A stretch of 64,000 nt of DNA from Candidatus Harrisonbacteria bacterium (lineage in GTDB: Bacteria; Patescibacteriota; Minisyncoccia; UBA6257; 1-14-0-10-44-23). The notes below the pieces were generated by a model. That model was given only the letters and a program-made list of their open reading frames with translations, was not told where the DNA came from and ran no database searches. The position numbers and the translations under genes are program-made. Location of the stretch: assembly GCA_023255625.1 (NCBI GenBank), contig JAHFLF010000003.1:2105-66104 (forward strand), read 5' to 3'. Below, piece after piece: positions 8,351-62,624 of the stretch (position 1 is its first letter; the number at the start of each line of letters is the position of its first letter).

Positions 8351-8422
8351 ACATTGGCCGGTTTTGTTTTTCAGCACTCCGTTTACGGTGAGCCCGTGCT
8401 GGAAAACAAAATCGGCCAATGT
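8351..8422. terminator. Bidirectional terminator hairpin (~30-bp stem) between convergent genes
   Basis: catacattggccggttttgtttttcagcac ... gtgctggaaaacaaaatcggccaatgtatg is a near-perfect inverted repeat with a T-run and an A-run. Confidence 0.55.
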
Positions 8423-8449
8423 ATGGAAAAATATAAATTGGCTATTAAA

Positions 8450-9247
8450 TTAATAGCCAATCTTCTTGAGCCAAGCGGAATGCTCCCATTCCCAAAGTGC
8501 TTTAGCGCCTAAAAAGGCCTTAAAGTCATCTTTCCAGTCGTGCAATTCTTTCAGTTCGACGACGCCGGTCGGCGCGCTCCATTCGTGCATCCCAACTGTA
8601 CACGGACTCGTTCCGTTGCTACGGCCGCCGTTATTCTGCCAACCGGACTTTATTTTTTCCCGCCCACCTTTGTCGCGCATAGTCGCACCGCAGCGAACGC
8701 AACTTTGAAATTGATCAATCCGTAAAATCCAACGAGTTTCTAAATTAGAAAATTCACGGGTCAGTGCATCCATATAAGCTGAAGTTTGAATACCATAGTC
8801 CCGATAAATTGACTCTGAAGTTTTGATGTCTAACACGCCGAACCTGCCGTCGATCTCGGCCATCACATCAATCGTGCCGGCATAACGATGCTCCGGATTC
8901 ATAATCCGCCGCTCAACATGCTCCGGATTAACTTTCAATTTTATTCCGCTGGTTTTTAAAAATTCCAAAAATCCTCGTACAGAGGGGAGTATGGAAACCG
9001 GAATATCGCCCGGGCGTTGGCCAATCAAAATTTTTTCAATGGCCTCGTGCACCGCCGTACCCATTTCCGCCGATTTAGCACTAATCTCCTTGGCGCGTGC
9101 AAAACCAACATCCGCATAAAACTTTAATAAAGCCGGCTTGGCCTTCATATCGGTTATCCTGGTTACGCGGGGATACCAGACGCCGTCAATATCGTAGCCG
9201 CACTGGGTTTTGAAATCTTGTTCGTCGGTAAATTCGGTGAAAGCCAT
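8450..9247 (-). CDS. PD-(D/E)xK nuclease, Cas4/RecB-like, with a C-terminal Cys cluster
   Basis: GTIDVMAEIDGRFGVLDIKTSE...QTSAYMDAL (D..D.K..Q..Y core). C-terminal C-x2-C ... C (QSCVRCGAT...SPCTV). Confidence 0.5.
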   Translation of the reverse strand: MAFTEFTDEQDFKTQCGYDIDGVWYPRVTRITDMKAKPALLKFYADVGFARAKEISAKSAEMGTAVHEAIEKILIGQRPGDIPVSILPSVRGFLEFLKTSGIKLKVNPEHVERRIMNPEHRYAGTIDVMAEIDGRFGVLDIKTSESIYRDYGIQTSAYMDALTREFSNLETRWILRIDQFQSCVRCGATMRDKGGREKIKSGWQNNGGRSNGTSPCTVGMHEWSAPTGVVELKELHDWKDDFKAFLGAKALWEWEHSAWLKKIGY

Positions 9248-19596: not shown

Positions 19597-20117
19597 CACG
19601 ATATTCTTGCGAATACTTTTCCCCTCTCACGAGGAGCGTAGACTATATCTTGACCCACCCTAAATCGCTTTTGCGACCGGGTAAAGGGTCTCGGCATCTT
19701 ACAAATGCAGCCCTGTCTGCGAAACATATCGCAAACTTTCTGGAACTACATAAGTCCGCCCGTTATCCCGCTGTTAGCGGAACCGGAACAAGTCGTTACG
19801 GGGTCAAGCGCGAAATACGCGCAAGTTGAAAGTTTATCAAGTTTATAAAGTTATAAAGTAGAAACGGAAACCCGCATCCACTTGATGAACTTTACAAACT
19901 TTCAACTTTACAAACTTGCGTGCTTTGCACGCCGACTTCCCACGGTATTGTCTTATTACTTTTCTGGTCCTCAAGCTTGTACGCCTTTGGCGTATAAATT
20001 GTACCACGCGTTTGAGGACTAACTCTCGCTTGGTTATCAACAGACCAGACCGTCATAAGATTCCACCGTTATTAGCCGAATTTTCATCACGCATTACTGC
20101 ATGAAGTAGCAAACTTT
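19597..20117 (-). ncRNA. group I intron A (ORF-less, ~521 nt) in the 23S sarcin-ricin loop region (between U2656 and A2657, E. coli numbering, inferred)
   Basis: P7/P9.0 core AAGATATAGTCTACGC on the minus strand. Removing 19597-20117 reconstitutes CCTAGT|ACGAGAGGACCGG. It contains a copy of the AAGTT composite palindrome (19806-19933). Confidence 0.6.
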
Positions 20118-20315
20118 ACTAGGATCGACTCTCCTCCGATACCATACGCCTGCAACAGATAGAGACCAACCTGTCTCACGACGGTTTGAACCCAGCTCAC
20201 GTGCCCTTTTAATTGGCGAACAGACAAACGCTTGGGAGCTTCTTCACCCCCGCGCTAGGGCGAGCCGACATCGAGGTGCCGAGCGTTGCCGTCGATAGGA
20301 ACTCTCGAGCAACAC

Positions 20316-20350
<35 letters not shown>

Positions 20351-20705
20351 TCTTTGTGCTTTCTATAAAGCAACATCGGGTCACTAAGTTCTGCTTTCGC
20401 ATCGGCGCGACTTGTAGGTCTTGCCGTTAAGCCAGCATGTGCCTTTACACGTTCAGCCCGATTTCCATCCGGGCCAAGCTGACCTTAATAAACTCCTCCG
20501 CTACTCTTTAGGCTTGTTGTTAGTTGCATGCATCATTTCTGTGCATCGCTTCATGTCGCCATGAAGGTCAGACTATATCTTCAGCATATCCGGATATGAT
20601 TGCTGTTTGGCGTATAGTCGTTGAGGACTCTCTTATTGAAGCTGAAAGAAGGAGTGAAATAAATAATTAATACATAATAACTACTTCACGTCCACGCGAT
20701 GCGTG

Positions 20706-20781
20706 TGGTGGGCTCTGAAGGACTTAAACCTCCGACCTCCTGGATTTCAACCAGGTGCTCTAGCAGCTGAGCTAAGAGCCC
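20706..20781 (-). ncRNA. tRNA-like structure 1 inside intron B: full cloverleaf with a Phe(GAA) anticodon arm and encoded CCA, but the D/T tertiary invariants are altered
   Basis: Minus strand: GGGCTCT TA GCTC AGCTGCTA GAGC A CCTGG TTGAAAT CCAGG AGGTC GGAGG TTTAAGT CCTTC AGAGCCC A CCA. C19 and U56 replace G19/C56. T-loop is TTTAAGT. Confidence 0.5.
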
Positions 20782-20797
20782 ACTTGTTCGCATTTTT

Positions 20798-20889
20798 TGG
20801 AGCGGGCGAGAGGATTCGAACCTCTACCCTATCGCCGCCAAAGCCCTTGCGGGCTCAAGGGGCTTGCCCTGCCGTTAGACCACGCCCGC
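20798..20889 (-). ncRNA. tRNA-like structure 2 inside intron B: class II-like (long extra arm) with canonical acceptor, D and T arms but an aberrant anticodon region
   Basis: Minus strand: GCGGGCG TG GTC TAACGGCAG GGC A AGCCCCTTGAGCCCGCAAGGGCT ... AGAGG TTCGAAT CCTCT CGCCCGC T CCA. U8, GG in the D-loop and T-loop TTCGAAT are present. No 5-bp stem plus 7-nt anticodon loop can be drawn. A GCAA-tetraloop hairpin AGCCC/GGGCT occupies the region. Confidence 0.4.
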
Positions 20890-21407
20890 TCCGTTACAAC
20901 ATTGCTTGCGATTTTCCTCCTTCTTTCAACTTCAATAAGGTTGCCTGCTGATTGTCCGCATCGATCTTGAATTTTTACCCTTTTCGACAAGAGGTATCAA
21001 GATATGCCCGGATATTCCAGCATATAGCCAAATTTTTTACCGTTAACCCCCATATGCGCAGAGGCACATATATACTTGAGGATAACGCCCCATTAAAACT
21101 GCCCACCAGGCACTGTCCCGCGACGTTTTTGCCGTCGAGGTTAGAATCTAAAATTTTACAGATGGCTGTTTCATTGTTGGATCCATGTCTCCCGAAAGAG
21201 ACACTTCAAATCCTCGCCACTACGCTACGCAGTAAAATCCTAGAGCCAATACCAAGCTACAGTAAAGCTCCCGGGGTCTTTTCGTCTTGCTGCAGGTACC
21301 CAGCGTCTTCACTGGACTCGCATTTTCACCGAGCTCTTCGTTGAGACAGTTCTCCACTCGTTACACGATTCGTGCGCTTCGGAACTTACCCGAAAAGGAA
21401 TTGCGCT

Positions 21408-21956
21408 CACTATTGTTACTATCCGCCAGCTTGCGGACGGATGAATATTTCTATTCACCTCTATGCATTACTGCACAGGTCGGACTATATCTTCATATAT
21501 GCGTTATCAGGCGCATACTGTTCGGCGTGTAGTCTCTACAGGGTCATATTGAAGCTGAAAGAAGGATGCGAAGTGTATCGCTACTCCTTCGTATCCGCGC
21601 GGAAGGCGCGAAAGAGAGGTGACGGGTCTCATGTATTTACCCGCATTGCAATAAAGACTCGTAGTCTTTAATCTTGAGGCAACCGGCTCGCCCCGAATTG
21701 CACTGCAGCCCTTGCGGGTTCTGCAGGAAGCAGCCATACCATCCGAAGGCAACAGGCTCGAGTAGTCTGGTGGACGCTGTGCGCCACTCGAATCTCTTCC
21801 GCCTACATCGGAGCTAACCCTTGCTTCTCACACCCCTCTCATTTTCCTTCTTTCAACTTCAATAGACTTCCCTCGGTATTGTCCAAGACAAAATTTCCTT
21901 TCCTATATTCTTGGATGTTCACCGATATAGCCAAATTTTACTAAGGCAAGCAATTC
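21408..21956 (-). ncRNA. group I intron C (ORF-less, ~549 nt) at 23S helix 69, site L1917 (inferred)
   Basis: P7 3'/P9.0 AAGATATAGTCCGACC plus P9 hairpins GGTGAATAGAAATATTCATCC and TCCGCAAGCTGGCGGA. Removing the intron joins ...TAACTATAATCGTTCTAAGGT|AGCGCAATTCC, which matches the E. coli sequence CUAAGGU|AGCGAAAUUCC. Confidence 0.65.
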
Positions 21957-22004
21957 ACCTTAGAACGATTATAGTTATCGCTGACATTGACGAGGGCTTC
22001 GGGC

Positions 22005-22130
22005 AGTGCGCATGCCCTGCGCACAAGTCGCAAGTTTATCAAGTTCTTCAAGCTCGAAAGTAGAAACCGGAATTCGGCCTTACTTGATAAACTTGATGAA
22101 CTTTTTACTTGACGAACTGTGTGCAGAGCA
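22005..22130. repeat. AAGTT composite palindromic element, copy in the 23S helix 68 region
   Basis: GCGCACAAGTCGCAAGTTTATCAAGTTCTTCAAG ... CTTGATAAACTTGATGAACTTTTTACTTGACGAACTGTGTGC, flanked by small GCGCA..TGCGC hairpins. It replaces about 25 nt of E. coli sequence with about 135 nt. Confidence 0.6.
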
Positions 22131-22261
22131 CACACCCACCGTTAACCTTCTCGCATCGGTCACGTGTCACCCCCTATACATCCTCTTGCGAGTTAGCAGG
22201 GAGTTGTGTTTTTGATAAACAGTCGGCAGAGATACTTTCGCTGCGGCCCCGCGCGCACAGC

Positions 22262-22391
22262 GCGCAAGTCACAAGTTTATCAAGTTCATAAAGTTATAAA
22301 GTAGAAACGGGAATCGCTTCCGGTATTCACTTGATGAACTTTACGAACTTTCAACTTGATGAACTGCGTGCTGCGCACGCCGGGCAGGCCT
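22262..22391. repeat. AAGTT composite palindromic element, copy replacing 23S helix 63; about 85% identical to the copy inside intron A
   Basis: gcgcgcacagcgcgc + caagtcacaagtttatcaagttcataaagttataaagtagaaac...cacttgatgaactttacgaactttcaacttgatgaactg + cgtgctgcgcacgcc. Confidence 0.6.
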
Positions 22392-23595
22392 TATTGCTAA
22401 CTTACGGCCGCTTTTTTGCCGAGTTCCTTAACGAAGATTCACTCGTTCCCCTGAGGATACTCTCCTCACCCACCAGTGTCGGTTTACGGTACGATGCACA
22501 TGTTCTAAACTTAGAAGTTTTTCTTGGAAGGCTATTCTGCTGTATTAGTCTTGGAAAACCAAAACCTTATCGGAACGCGCGCACTACTACATTAAAGTAA
22601 GCTACCCGGATTTACCTGGATAACAGTGCTTATCGTCCTAAACGCCAAACCATTAAGGCGCACAGCTCTATGTCCTCCGTCACTCCATCGCACAAACATG
22701 CGCGGGCCGGAATATTAACCGGCTTCCCATTAGCTACGGTTCTCACCATTGCCTTAGGATCGCCTAACCCGCGGTTGATTGCCATTGCCGCGGAAACCTT
22801 GGATTTTCGGGGTACGCGTTTCTCACGCGTATTGTGGTTACTTGTGCCAACATTCTCTCTTCCAAACGCTCCACGGGCTCTCACGAGTCCCGCTTCACAG
22901 CTATATTCGTCCTTCAACGAATGATTGGAATGCTCTCCTACCGCGCCACCTGATAAATCAAGTGACACCCGCAATTTCGGTACTATGTTTAGCCCCGGTA
23001 CATTTTCGGCGCAGTCGCCCTCGAATAGTGAGTTGTTACACACTCTTTAAAGGATGGCTACCTCTAAGCCAACCTCCTATCTGTCTATGGGAAACTACTA
23101 CCTTTAACACTTAACATAGATTTAGGGACCTTAATTTGCGATCTGGGCTCTTCCCCTCGCGACCATGGAGCTTTGCCCCCACAGTCTAACTAGCTAGACG
23201 TTTTATGTGAGTATTCGGAGTTTAACTGAAATGTCGCCCTTTCGGGCTGTACACCTCAACTAGTAGCTCTACCCCTCACATGATGTCTCTAGCCGCTAGT
23301 CCGAAAACTATTTCGGAGAGAACCAGCTATTACCAAGCTCGATTAGCTTTTCACTTCTTATCCCAAGTCATCCCAGGGTTTTGCACAACCCACGAGTTCG
23401 GTCCTCCATAGGATTTTACTCCTACTTCAACCTGCTCAGGACAAGCTCGCCTTGGCTTCGGGTCTTATGTATGCCGCTTATTGTCGCGCTATTAACACTC
23501 GGTTTCCCTACGCCTCCACCGCCGAAGCGGCTTAGACTAATGCGACACACATAAACTCGTTGGCTCATTCTTCAATAGGCACATAGTCACCCCAC

Positions 23596-23735
23596 GCGCA
23601 CCTCACTGCTGTGACGTGCGCAATTTTCAATTACCAATTTTCAATTTTCAAACAATTTTGAAATTAATCAATTGTTTAGAAATTAGAAATTAGAAATTAG
23701 AAATTGCGCACTCTCACGACAGTGAGATGCGCGCT
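23596..23735. repeat. Insertion in 23S helix 25 region: AT-rich cassette (same family as 7519-7622 and 57325-57435) closed by GC-rich inverted repeats
   Basis: gcgcacctcactgctgtgacgtgcgc | aattttcaattaccaattttcaattttcaaacaattttgaaattaatcaattgtttagaaattagaaattagaaattagaaatt | gcgcactctcacgacagtgagatgcgcgc. Confidence 0.6.
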
Positions 23736-23798
23736 GGGGGCTCCTATTCATTGTAAGCGTACGGTTTCAGGTACTATTTCACCGCCCTTACCGGGCTG

Positions 23799-23839
<41 letters not shown>

Positions 23840-23935
23840 TGAAGTGTATTTAGCCTTACCGGATAGTACCGGTATGTTCCCGCATAGTTTATTTGCCACG
23901 CGGTACTCTAGAAATCTCATATTGCTACAAGACCA

Positions 23936-24195
23936 GTCCTGTATGTCACATATGCCGCGAAATGCGGAAGCATTAAAATTGTCGAGACCGCGACGCGAGT
24001 GGCGAGACATATGGCTATGCCATAAGCTCGACGCTCGCAACAAAGGTATCGACAATTTTAATGCTTTGACGGGCTAATTTTTGCCTGATTCTTTGTTGCT
24101 TGTCGTAGCCATAGCTAAAGCTATTGTCTACTCCGCGCGCCTAGAATCATGCCAAAATTCGCACCGCCGCATTCGTGTCATATGTGACATACAGG
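23936..24195. repeat. ~260-375-nt insertion in 23S domain I (between E. coli positions ~200 and ~460) with nested perfect inverted repeats
   Basis: Outer 17-bp inverted repeat: cctgtatgtcacatatg (23936-23952) / catatgtgacatacagg (24179-24195). Inner 16-bp inverted repeat: gcattaaaattgtcga (23967-23982) / tcgacaattttaatgc (24046-24061). There is an rRNA-length excess of about 375 nt here. Confidence 0.6.
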
Positions 24196-24694
24196 ACAAA
24201 AAACGAGAGTCAGAACTGTTTTCGCATACTGGGCTATCACCATCTTTGGCGCGTCTTTCCAGGCGCTTCTGCTAACAGACTGTTTTTTAACTCTCTTTTT
24301 ACAAATCACGCAGCAGCCGTAAAGCTGCTCCGTGAAAAGTAAAAGTGTTTTTCTCTAAACCCCCAAAAGATTTATTGCTAAATCCCTCGAGTTTGGGCTC
24401 TTCCGTTTTCGCTCGCCGCTACTAACGGAATACAATTTGTATCTTTTCCTCTGGTTACTGAGATGTTTCACTTCACCAGGTTGACGAACGCATCACTTAT
24501 GTATGCGAACTATGTCGGGTTACGACATAAGGTTTCCCCATTCGGAAATCTCCGGATCACAGGTTGCTAACACCTCCCCGAAGCTTATCGCAGCTACGCC
24601 ACGTCCTTCATCGCCACTTCATGCCAAGGCATCCACCGTACGCCCTTTAACGCTCTGACGCATGTCAGAGCTCACTAACCACATAATGCTCAAG

Positions 24695-47737: not shown

Positions 47738-47811
47738 TGCGCGTGCCCTGATTCGAACAGGGTACCTCGTCGATGTCAACGACGCGCTCTAACCAAGTGA
47801 GCTACACGCGC
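47738..47811 (-). tRNA. tRNA-Val (anticodon GAC)
   Basis: GCGCGTG TA GCTC ACTTGGTTA GAGC G CGTCG TTGACAT CGACG AGGTA CCCTG TTCGAAT CAGGG CACGCGC A. Confidence 0.85.
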
Positions 47812-48494
47812 AATAAAAGCCTCTCGCAAAAATCTCTACTAATATTAATCAATTTACGCTGAATTGCAACATTAGCACATCTTAGAGAGCAAACGCCATG
47901 GTAGGCGGGGTATGTCTTTGATCCAATGGTTCGTTTGTCAAAATTCACTTGTTTAAAATTTTCAACCGGAATATCCAGCTCTTTTGACCAATGTCGTTTC
48001 ATTGCGTCGCCATCTTGGTCTGCTCTGAGATACAATTCACATCTGATTTTCTGAGTATCAATTTTATAATTTTTTCTAAGAATATATAAGAAAGTTTTGA
48101 GAATTAAGGGGTCAGAATTGCCAATTCCTGTTTCATCGTTACTCTTAAAGCCCTCGCCGAAATACAAAAATGCTAATGCCAAATCAAGAATGTCTGGATT
48201 ATCCAAATCTAAATTTTCTAAAACTGCATCTGATTGCTTTCTCGCCTCAGCAAGCCTACCAGCCTTCTGGGCATTATGCCATTCAACTGCCTTGAAACGC
48301 GCTTTAATCAGCCCCTCCCGCCAATCTCTTTTTAACTTATCTTTTTGTTTCCTACTTAACTCAACATCCTTAAGCCAAGGAGATACCGTGGACTGATTGA
48401 TTCCTAAGTGCTTAGCGATCCGTCCGATAGAAAGCCCTTTTATTCGCAAACGAATCGCTTCTTCTCTTTCTTTAACAAATTTAATACCACGCAT
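47802..48494 (-). CDS. HTH-domain protein with a single LAGLIDADG-like motif (putative free-standing homing-endonuclease-like gene)
   Basis: N-terminal HTH (LSIGRIAKHLGINQSTVSPWLK). LDLALAFLYFGEGFKSND resembles LAGLIDADG / GEGxF. Its stop overlaps the tRNA-Val 5' end by 10 nt. Confidence 0.45.
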   Translation of the reverse strand: MRGIKFVKEREEAIRLRIKGLSIGRIAKHLGINQSTVSPWLKDVELSRKQKDKLKRDWREGLIKARFKAVEWHNAQKAGRLAEARKQSDAVLENLDLDNPDILDLALAFLYFGEGFKSNDETGIGNSDPLILKTFLYILRKNYKIDTQKIRCELYLRADQDGDAMKRHWSKELDIPVENFKQVNFDKRTIGSKTYPAYHGVCSLRCANVAIQRKLINISRDFCERLLLRV

Positions 48495-54766: not shown

Positions 54767-54934
54767 GCGAGAAATAATTTAATGGTAAAACAAAACCGCC
54801 TAACAGTGGCGGTTTCTAAACAATAACATAAGAAGCCGCCAAAAACTATGAGGCGACTCGCGAGGTAAATGAAGACCAGGTTGTGATGTGAGCGTTGTGA
54901 AGCATAGGATTAGTATAGCATAAGTTTGTCTTTG

Positions 54935-55006
54935 TGCGCGTGGGAGGGATCGAACCTCCGGCCTTTTCATTATCAGTGAAATGCTCTACCACTGAGCTAC
55001 ACGCGC
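54935..55006 (-). tRNA. tRNA-Ile (anticodon GAT)
   Basis: GCGCGTG TA GCTC AGTGGTA GAGC A TTTCA CTGATAA TGAAA AGGCC GGAGG TTCGATC CCTCC CACGCGC A. Confidence 0.85.
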
Positions 55007-55260
55007 CCTTCTTCGCTTAGCTTGGTAACTAAGCTTCGCAAGGGCAAGAGATGGTATATCTGTATCTCTCGTCCTTCCGAAGCTCGAGTACTCACGAGCG
55101 TAGGAGGAAGCTACACGCGCCCTTCTTCGCTTAGCTTGGTAACTAAGCTTCGCAAGGGCAAGAGATGGTATATCTGTATCTCTCGTCCTTCCGAAGCTCG
55201 AGTACTCACGAGCGTAGGAGGAAGCTACACGCGCCCTTCTTCGTTAAAGCTTCGCAGGGC
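55007..55260. repeat. Tandem direct repeat (107-bp unit, about 2.4 copies) abutting the tRNA-Ile 5' end; each unit ends with a mimic of the tRNA 5' end (AGCTACACGCGC)
   Basis: Unit cccttcttcgcttagcttggtaactaagcttcgcaagggcaagagatggtatatctgtatctctcgtccttccgaagctcgagtactcacgagcgtaggaggaagctacacgcg repeated at 55007-55113 and 55114-55220, then truncated to 55260. Confidence 0.8.
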
Positions 55261-55315
55261 AAGCATTAACTTAGCTATTATTTTTACCTGAATACGGCTG
55301 GTTAGTCAATGAAGG

Positions 55316-61723: not shown

Positions 61724-61724
61724 A

Positions 61725-61805
61725 GCTTTTTAGCTGGTCAGCTGTTTAGCTTCTTAGCTTTAAAATGACTCGCCGGAAAAGCTGACTAGCTGATAAGCTA
61801 AGGAG
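61725..61805. repeat. TAGCT/CAGCT-unit imperfect hairpin array upstream of parB (related in style to the TTAGTTAG arrays)
   Basis: agctttttagctggtcagctgtttagcttcttagcttt ... aaaagctgactagctgataagctaaggagctg. Confidence 0.45.
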
Positions 61806-61856: not shown

Positions 61857-61940
61857 GCCCGGGTGGCGGAACTGGCAGACGCGATGGATTCAAGACCCAT
61901 TGGCCGAAAGGCCTTGAGAGTTCAACTCTCTCCCCGGGCA
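61857..61940 (+). tRNA. tRNA-Leu (anticodon CAA)
   Basis: GCCCGGG TG GCG GAACTGGCAGA CGC G ATGGA TTCAAGA CCCAT TGGCCGAAAGGCCT GAGAG TTCAACT CTCTC CCCGGGC A. One A.C mismatch closes the anticodon stem. Confidence 0.75.
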
Positions 61941-61943
61941 CAC

Positions 61944-62624
61944 ATGGCCAAACCAAAATTGCCTGATATAGATTTTCCATGGACGCCTAATCTAGCTTAT
62001 GCAGTTGGTCTCTTAACAACTGATGGCAATCTTTCTCCGGATGGTAGACATATCAACTTTACCTCGAAAGATGAAGAGCTAGTTCTCTCCGTCAAGTCCT
62101 GCCTGAATCTAAAAAATCGAATCGGTAAAAAAGGAAATGGCTCTTATCTTAACGAGAAAAAATACTTCGTCTTACAATTTGGGAATATACAATTGTATCG
62201 CTGGTTGGTGAGGATTGGATTGACTCCGCGAAAAAGTAGGACGATCGGTGCGCTGGAAATTCCCAACGAGTTTTTCAGAGATTTTCTCCGAGGTCACCTA
62301 GACGGTGACGGCGGGATAACTACATGTACTGACTACTATAACGCATCAATAAAACCAGAATATGTATACATCCGCCTTTGCGCTCGTTTCATTTCGGCGA
62401 GTGAAAAACATATGCGATGGATGAAAGAAAAAATAGAAGAGACTCTTCAAATTTTTGGAAGTCTGCATAAAGCAAAGGCTCGTAGTGAGGTACACGCCAA
62501 TATGTGGATACTCAAATTCGGCAAAAAAGAAAGCATCAAACTCCTTAGTAAGCTTTACTATGACAAAAATCTTCCCTCACTCTCGCGCAAACGGCTGATT
62601 GCCGAAAAATTCATTTCGTTATAA
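61944..62624 (+). CDS. double-motif LAGLIDADG homing endonuclease (free-standing)
   Basis: Motif 1 LAYAVGLLTTDGNL and motif 2 FLRGHLDGDGGI. The ATG is 4 nt after the tRNA-Leu(CAA) 3' end; the tracked start at 61863 would lie inside the tRNA. Confidence 0.7.
   Translation: MAKPKLPDIDFPWTPNLAYAVGLLTTDGNLSPDGRHINFTSKDEELVLSVKSCLNLKNRIGKKGNGSYLNEKKYFVLQFGNIQLYRWLVRIGLTPRKSRTIGALEIPNEFFRDFLRGHLDGDGGITTCTDYYNASIKPEYVYIRLCARFISASEKHMRWMKEKIEETLQIFGSLHKAKARSEVHANMWILKFGKKESIKLLSKLYYDKNLPSLSRKRLIAEKFISL

Follow-up and report, generated by a model that had tools for sequence, protein, structure and literature searches.

The genomic islands and prophages integrated by tyrosine integrases normally duplicate the 3' part of a tRNA gene, from a copy borne by the element. 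Tn7 (attTn7), Ty3 and the Dictyostelium TRE are autonomous, have known machinery and generate 5 bp duplications, and Ty3 and TRE are eukaryotic retroelements that insert at tRNA genes. For prokaryotic MITEs, a size of 50–800 bp, the absence of coding sequence and terminal inverted repeats of at least 10–15 bp serve as defining features. Their target duplications are 2–10 bp (PMC11602168). Mobile tRNA introns that transpose between tRNA genes are described for Thermoproteales archaea (cited in PMC10714607).

Here, we describe a tandemly repeated unit at the 5' end of a tRNA-Ile(GAT) gene in a 64 kb stretch of DNA from a Candidatus Harrisonbacteria bacterium, here called the window. In the tRNA sense, the unit consists of a 102 nt segment, here named E (TCCTCCTACGC...AAGCGAAGAAGG), and T, the first 12 nt of the tRNA (GCGCGTGTAGCT). 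E resembles prokaryotic MITEs and palindromic repeats (Correia, ERIC, RUP and the Rickettsia palindromic elements) in that it is approximately 100 bp (101–102 nt in all copies), non-coding and an imperfect hairpin with imperfectly inverted termini, is flanked in three of five loci by a target-derived duplication and has no transposase of its own. In the window, its first 11–12 nt match the reverse complement of its last 11 nt at 9 of 11 positions. Such repeats are transcribed together with a neighbouring gene, as is likely for E. However, the 12 nt duplication is longer than the 2–10 bp reported for MITEs (PMC11602168), all copies of E seen are at tRNA 5' ends in one orientation, only one locus was found in the 64 kb window rather than many dispersed copies, and the internal hairpins appear to be maintained by compensatory changes.

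As with tyrosine-integrase islands and prophages, the target is a tRNA gene that is kept intact and a tRNA fragment forms a direct repeat. Those islands are kilobases long and encode an integrase, whereas here 114 bp is involved, the repeat is nt 1–12 of the 5' end copied from the target, and no integrase was found beside the tRNA or elsewhere in the window. Like the 'safe-haven' transposition of Tn7, Ty3 and TRE, insertion of E would exploit a conserved gene feature, with its distance and direction fixed so that the gene product is unharmed. The Thermoproteales tRNA introns are similar in that related short sequences recur in several tRNA genes at one shared non-canonical position, and inserts at tRNA position 12/13 without duplication are found in relic tRNA copies in relatives. 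They differ in that introns interrupt the mature sequence, whereas an uninterrupted 73 nt tRNA follows the array in the window, in a bacterial host without a known splicing endonuclease. By analogy, the closest match to the way E would work is a palindromic repeat such as Correia, ERIC or RPE, or a MITE, with safe-haven logic added, and its likeness to an att footprint appears superficial.

The tRNA-Ile(GAT) locus and the number of repeat units

The features of the locus are listed below.

54934–55006, minus strand: intact tRNA-Ile(GAT) gene, 73 nt, CCA not encoded (ARAGORN; Rfam tRNA, 78.9 bits)
54995–55006, minus strand: proximal copy of T, tRNA-Ile nt 1–12, part of the intact gene
55007–55108, minus strand: E copy 1 (proximal), 102 nt, TCCTCC...GAAGAAGG (covariance model R1, 90.3 bits)
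55109–55120, minus strand: T copy 2, GCGCGTGTAGCT, identical to tRNA-Ile nt 1–12 (repeat comparison)
55121–55222, minus strand: E copy 2 (distal), 100% identical to E copy 1
55223–55234, minus strand: T copy 3 (outermost), GCGCGTGTAGCT
55235–55264, minus strand: 30 nt stretch GCTTGCCCTGCGAAGCTTTAACGAAGAAGG (pairwise alignments; orthologous leader in L124)
55280–55309, minus strand: sigma-70-like promoter TTGACT-18-AAAAAT, upstream of the entire array
54995–55243, no strand assigned: tandem array, period 114, 2.2 copies, 100% matches (Tandem Repeats Finder)

Reading in the direction of transcription, the order is promoter, 30 nt stretch, T, E, T, E, and T joined to tRNA nt 13–73. The sequence-only reading had placed about 2.4 copies of a 107 bp unit immediately upstream of the tRNA. 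A perfect tandem array adjoining the 5' side of tRNA-Ile(GAT) was confirmed by ARAGORN, Rfam and repeat searches, and every unit does carry AGCTACACGCGC, the reverse complement of tRNA nt 1–12. However, the period found by Tandem Repeats Finder is 114 bp, and its copy number of 2.2 rises to 2.4 only when the degenerate 30 nt at 55235–55264 are counted. The internal palindromes that had been pointed out are present, and correspond to two parts of the structure described below, namely P4 and the upper end of the long hairpin P3 (21 nt arms, 86% complementary). That the 5' rather than the 3' end of the tRNA is duplicated was also correct, and is the most informative feature of the locus.

Tandem Repeats Finder returned only this one array at the locus, which overlaps as well as abuts the 5' end of the tRNA. 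The repeat search found two 114 nt copies and a third copy of the first 21 nt, and this exactly repeated block, present three times, is made up of the 9 nt preceding the tRNA and tRNA nt 1–12. E is imperfectly palindromic, with inverted termini (TCCTCCTACGCT and AGCGAAGAAGG) and three internal hairpins. The 30 nt stretch at 55235–55264 resembles the last 43 nt of E with 13 nt of P4 removed. It may be what remains of an earlier copy of E or, alternatively, the leader native to this tRNA. When 134 tRNAs were examined for their own 5' 11-mer within 600 nt upstream, it was seen for 10 tRNA genes, against approximately 0.02 expected.

Promoter duplication had been raised as one source of the repeats. 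No promoter-like site was found inside the unit, and the only sigma-70-like one is at 55309–55280. The tRNA-Ile promoter is conserved in loci with E and without it (L122, L124, L077 and L068), and orthologous Ile loci share TTGAC-17/18-TAAAAT. As the promoter lies outside the unit and persists irrespective of E, duplication of a promoter does not account for the array.

Two MEGAHIT assemblies of the same strain contain a single unit. ENA ERZ27297344 (L001/L119) matches the window over 8654 nt except for exactly one 114 nt unit (a seeming 1 nt indel proved to be an edge effect of BLAST), and E copy 2 is absent from ENA ERZ27280214 (L121). Copy number thus differs between assemblies, though the one-unit state could be produced by short-read collapse, to which a two-unit locus is prone because it contains a 135 nt repeat. 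The one-unit assemblies represent either true variation or collapse of two units. With head-to-tail identical units and a copy number that differs between assemblies (collapse being possible), the array has the properties of a variable-number tandem repeat.

The opposite error, expansion of a single unit during assembly, had been named as an outcome that would overturn the array. Logan contigs are built with k=31. Logan contig L120 (SRR14366769) stops at ...AGCTTCCTCCTAC, and the final 30 nt of its terminal 31-mer can be preceded by either of two letters in the two-unit version alone. The break therefore corresponds to a branch point in the k=31 graph, which supports at least two units in SRR14366769. 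A true one-unit locus has only the 21 nt repeat, and so offers no cycle at k>21 for a de Bruijn assembler to expand. The two-unit state of the window is therefore probably not an assembly artefact, and we take the presence of two or more units to be genuine in no fewer than two datasets. The break in another Logan contig, L002, was rejected as repeat evidence; it lies inside the conserved tRNA core common to many species.

Could the unit be a mere local tandem duplication of promoter or leader, a variable-number tandem repeat without element identity, or its second copy an artefact of assembly? The units are 100% identical, the 21 nt flanking repeats favour slippage, and the same-strain MEGAHIT assemblies have one unit only. 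However, the T-E-T anatomy is present even in the one-unit state, the promoter is outside the unit, E is found at other tRNA genes in other genomes with both filled and empty sites (see below), and L120 breaks exactly where only a locus with at least two units branches. We consider this explanation highly improbable, and for the unit itself local duplication is largely refuted.

The array is surrounded by housekeeping genes (DprA, topoisomerase I, the Vut_1 transporter and folate enzymes), and relatives of the flanking genes are found in MAGs of Paceibacteria, Nomurabacteria and Doudnabacteria type, which, like the 23S rRNA insertions described below, places the organism in the Patescibacteria (CPR). 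Upstream of the coding sequence for the Vut_1/YhhQ queuosine-precursor transporter, the leader contains a AACCTGGTC...TTTACC motif followed by a terminator-like hairpin. It is conserved in three genomes (window 54780–54900, minus strand; L050:1–117; L051:660–800), matched nothing in Rfam and is a candidate for an undescribed leader of the riboswitch type.

Several further RNA genes in the window are unusual. The 23S rRNA gene (20042–24659, minus strand) is 4.6 kb compared with a 2.9 kb model, with approximately 1.7 kb of insertions. An Rfam group I intron hit at 20549–21075 encloses a tRNA-Phe(GAA) gene with an encoded CCA (20706–20781) and a 92 nt tRNA-like gene (20798–20889) called as Lys-CTT by ARAGORN, so that there are apparently tRNA genes within a 23S rRNA intron. 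Homing-endonuclease-like ORFs abut tRNA genes at 47802–48494 (minus strand) and 61863–62624 (plus strand). One, directly 5' of tRNA-Val, encodes 230 aa and combines HTH_23 at the N terminus with the LAGLIDADG-like motif LAFLYFGEGFK, and the other, with LAGLIDADG_3, overlaps tRNA-Leu(CAA) at its start. Shortly before this tRNA-Leu gene, at 61724–61804 (plus strand), AGCT recurs every 8 nt in blocks of five and then four copies, 24 nt apart, that form an imperfect inverted repeat. AGCT is not enriched across the window and was rejected as a signal. ACGT occurs 21 times in 64 kb when approximately 247 occurrences are expected from base composition (other palindromic tetramers, 97–493), which suggests restriction avoidance.

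Filled and empty sites and further copies of E

Orthologous tRNA-Ile loci were recovered via a gene for a small membrane protein just upstream. In L122, the promoter and a 29 nt leader are followed by tRNA-Ile without E, and in L124 a 30 nt leader (GCTTGCCCGTCGAAGCTTAAGCGGAATCGG) is directly before the tRNA. The one-unit assemblies of the window strain (L121 and L001) contain a 30-mer orthologous to the L124 leader, then T, E and the tRNA, and in the window a second E-T has been added. A second comparison was available at tRNA-Lys. The empty site, in L103, consists of tRNA-Asp, 14 nt and tRNA-Lys, and the orthologous filled site, in L113, of tRNA-Asp, 13 nt, Lys nt 1–12, E (102 nt) and a complete tRNA-Lys. 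In both comparisons, the inserted material is E together with a 12 nt duplicate that starts exactly at tRNA +1. This shows that E arrived by precise insertion with a 12 nt duplication. The duplicated 12-mer was copied from each target, being Lys-specific in L113 and Ile-specific in the window, and E is homologous in both.

A larger target duplication, of the leader plus the 12-mer (>41 nt) around a 60 nt insert, was also considered. It is excluded because the empty Lys site in L103 has no such leader, yet L113 has the whole 102 nt E. Given the candidate relic at 55235–55264, the tRNA-Ile locus looks as if it has been hit or expanded more than once, with a relic and then one or two units. Synteny was also followed via the Vut_1/YhhQ gene downstream; tRNA-Ile adjoined it in none of 47 fetched genome loci, nor in the closest homologues, L050 and L051.

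The tRNA-end fragments had been read as a mark of serial integration at an attachment site. Insertion at a tRNA gene is borne out by the two filled and empty pairs, but the integrase and att site are not. Pfam searches detected no integrase, excisionase or transposase domain in any of the 59 ORFs of the 64 kb window, the inserted piece is merely 114 bp, and the 12-mer is derived from the target rather than carried by the element. A remnant of integrase activity was nonetheless weighed, in the form of a larger island that integrated with a 5' tRNA segment at an att site and was later almost wholly deleted. Direct repeats of a tRNA segment around foreign DNA are the classic att footprint, and other elements target tRNA-Ile in relatives (the nested intact tRNA of L057 and L111 and the GIY-YIG ORF of L073, described below). 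However, the 102 nt E has the same ends whether it is at an Ile or a Lys gene, while the 12-mer matches the gene concerned, which argues against an att copy borne by the element, as this would carry the donor's sequence. There is no integrase in the 64 kb, and neither viral contigs, searched with exact and degenerate unit patterns, nor phage and plasmid sequences, searched with the unit by BLAST, returned a match. We regard this origin as highly improbable.

A metagenome scan with the tRNA-Ile core yielded 67 related loci. When these and other fetched loci were searched for E using BLAST, a pattern and a covariance model built here (R1), four more copies were found outside the window. In L077, E is upstream of tRNA-Ile, has 90% identity, the differences falling mainly in the P3 loop, and is preceded by GCGCGTGTAGCT at a spacing of 113 nt. 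In L113, E is upstream of tRNA-Lys(CTT), is 67% identical and is preceded, at a spacing of 114 nt, by CCACGCGTAGCT, the first 12 nt of its own tRNA-Lys. E in L050 is directly 5' of a tRNA truncated by the contig end, with no 12-mer visible. In L068, it is upstream of tRNA-Ile with a decayed 12-mer and an extra 63 nt before the tRNA. The latter two copies are from one metagenome sample and possibly from separate genomes.

In all five loci, E is 5' of the tRNA and in the same orientation, and a target-derived duplicate (T) is present in three, being absent or decayed in L050 and L068. The length is kept at 101–102 nt, though the termini are imperfect in L113, L050 and L068. A scan of approximately 715 kb of related DNA with model R1 found no copy of E away from a tRNA. 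At the window locus, Rfam 15 returned nothing but tRNA matches; other hits were far below gathering scores, and those obtained at permissive thresholds were noise. A search of the literature on CPR tRNA introns, tRNA-targeting MITEs and leaders of this kind, which was not exhaustive, found no description of E. The plus-strand ORF at 55022–55291, in which the unit equals 38 codons, was rejected as a coding sequence, as the 113 nt spacing in L077 against 114 nt breaks any frame and the only Pfam hit was sub-threshold. From these comparisons, E is a conserved non-coding family in related Patescibacteria (CPR).

Predicted structure of E and its possible role as a leader

E can be drawn as a four-way junction, with P1 formed by the inverted termini and three hairpins.

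55100–55107 with 55007–55014, minus strand: P1
55082–55099, minus strand: P2
55035–55081, minus strand: P3
55015–55034, minus strand: P4

P3 has arms of approximately 21 nt and contains an invariant block, GGA(A/U)GGAC // GCCCYU, common to the Ile and Lys versions of E. In an alignment of four E sequences, 96.5% of cells pair (92% for the P1 termini) and 10 base pairs are changed on both sides, compared with 0–2 in controls slid by 1–3 columns. As the alignment was made by hand and fitted to the structure, with only four sequences, this covariation result leans towards the structure. Fold z-scores against shuffled sequences were –4.8 to –6.7 (–4.84 for E in the window). Minimum-energy folds often favour a single rod-like hairpin, and the four junction strands (GCUC/GAGC) permit two folds, cruciform or rod. 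When the entire precursor is folded in silico, the tRNA retains its acceptor, anticodon and T arms. The antisense strand folds equally well or better in two of three cases, and with 11 G.U against 8 A/C cells the wobble pairs favour neither strand, so the modelled constraint could be exerted on RNA or else on DNA in a single-stranded or cruciform state.

Such conservation raises the question of whether E is a functional pre-tRNA leader module, acting in processing, stability or regulation or as a small RNA released by RNase P, that was recruited to several tRNA genes; the upstream 12-mer would then itself be functional, perhaps by competing with the acceptor strand or serving as its decoy. In every case E shares the sense of the tRNA and separates it from the promoter, its length is conserved (101–102 nt), P2–P4 show compensatory changes and the P3 block is invariant between the Ile and Lys versions, the GCUC/GAGC strands would allow alternative cruciform and rod folds, and the leaders of two tRNA-Ser genes in L073 (see below) contain a stretch complementary to the tRNA fragment. 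However, most related tRNA-Ile genes are without E, including the identical tRNA in L074 and the orthologous one in L122, and L050 and L068 have kept E but not T. The strand-neutral folding and wobble counts and the lack of a matching Rfam family also count against a leader module, and it leaves the origin of the Lys-specific 12-mer on insertion unexplained. We think this role unlikely as an explanation for the locus.

Duplicated tRNA 5' ends and the origin of E

Hairpin inserts of 29–42 nt with CCNCC...GG ends were found at tRNA position 12/13, without duplication, in relic tRNA copies in L114, L111 (twice) and L063. Longer 5' fragments, extending from nt 1 to between nt 33 and nt 39, are present in L057, L111, L073 and L077 and also begin exactly at +1. 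In total, there are nine cases, with fragments of 12 to 39 nt, in which the duplicated 5' piece starts exactly at the mature +1. As a fixed 12 nt stagger does not explain a +1 start over such varied lengths, this hints that the boundary is set by the mature tRNA or by selection and not by a transposase. Its recurrence might be explained if selection keeps the proximal copy intact, or if the mature tRNA acts as a template.

Other arrangements were seen in these loci. Two regions of L073 (4690–5152, plus strand, and approximately 8373–8700, minus strand) are of this kind. Upstream of each of two tRNA-Ser genes there is a copy of that gene's initial 13 nt, and the 70–80 nt inserts are unlike E and contain a stretch complementary to the 5' fragment. 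At the tRNA-Ile gene of L073, a small GIY-YIG-like ORF is located between the 5' fragment (nt 1–38) and the intact gene, and the fragment is itself split by a 36 nt perfect hairpin. In L057 (tRNA-Ile 1490–1562) and L111 (728–801, minus strand), an intact tRNA-Ile flanked by an approximately 20 nt inverted repeat is nested inside a second tRNA-Ile gene. Breaks in the anticodon loop and in the T arm divide the outer gene, with a further break at 12/13 in L111, and the insert looks like an element carrying its own replacement tRNA. Downstream of E in L077 (794–1303, minus strand), a tRNA-Ile is interrupted after nt 39 by a 271 nt insert with 20 nt terminal inverted repeats, and an intact second tRNA-Ile lies 56 nt beyond it.

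The inserts with E-like ends exactly at 12/13 and without duplication in L114, L111 and L063 would fit an intron-like insertion of E at that position, with nt 1–12 later re-added beside nt 13, for example from cDNA of the mature tRNA or by local patch duplication, and the old exon and E left as debris. The nine duplicated 5' fragments starting at the mature +1 agree with such a restoration, and the genome does have introns and homing-endonuclease-like genes in or beside RNA genes. However, two steps are needed where one suffices, no interrupted tRNA was seen as a sole copy, and no reverse transcriptase or splicing endonuclease was found in the window. Rfam gave no group I or group II intron at the locus with E-values up to 10, and simple splicing would not restore the outer interrupted genes of L057 and L111. 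This origin is therefore distinctly improbable.

Our preferred explanation, to which we give roughly even chances, is that E is a MITE-like element without machinery of its own, which enters tRNA genes at their 5' ends, duplicates 12 nt of the target, is carried in the pre-tRNA leader, and has been doubled in the window. E would land at tRNA gene 5' ends in a fixed orientation, with a trans-acting enzyme presumably cutting 12 nt apart at a conserved D-arm box, TRGCT|NAGTGG. This 12 nt spacing of the cuts would place the upstream one at tRNA +1, and the tRNA gene would survive because the duplicated target is its nt 1–12. The T copy adjoining nt 13 would rebuild the intact gene and the other would stay upstream as a fragment. 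Located between promoter and tRNA, E would be transcribed by read-through into the pre-tRNA leader, where it may fold on itself and be lost through RNase P cleavage at +1. The doubling to two identical units would be recent, arising from unequal recombination or slippage between the 21 nt direct repeats that flank E or from re-insertion at the same target.

Our confidence in the MITE-like element is held at this level by the 12/13 inserts without duplication, the tRNA-Ser cases in L073, the longer fragments that start at +1 and the internal conservation of E. The compensatory changes and invariant P3 block suggest a constraint beyond that expected of selfish DNA. More tentatively, this CPR clade may possess an undescribed insertion system that recognises the D-arm box and places hairpin elements at 12/13, with the tRNA 5' end regenerated and the RNA of E serving as an obligatory self-insulating leader. 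Regeneration in that system could involve a ruler-like 12 nt staggered cut or restoration templated on the mature tRNA; the latter would cause all duplicated fragments, from 12 to 39 nt, to start at +1.

The insertion reading accounts for tRNA fragments that derive, unusually, from the 5' end and not from the 3' end as is common. If E is a mobile element specific for tRNA 5' ends, selfish DNA would be able to survive in genomes of <1 Mb with single-copy tRNA genes, by way of a target whose duplication rebuilds the gene, and RNase P would have to cope with an added structured leader of approximately 100–270 nt. For annotators, tRNA fragments and pseudo-tRNAs beside intact tRNAs in CPR genomes would be insertion footprints. 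The unit copy number could act as a strain marker, and the sequence and structure model of E provides a handle for finding the enzyme responsible by co-occurrence.
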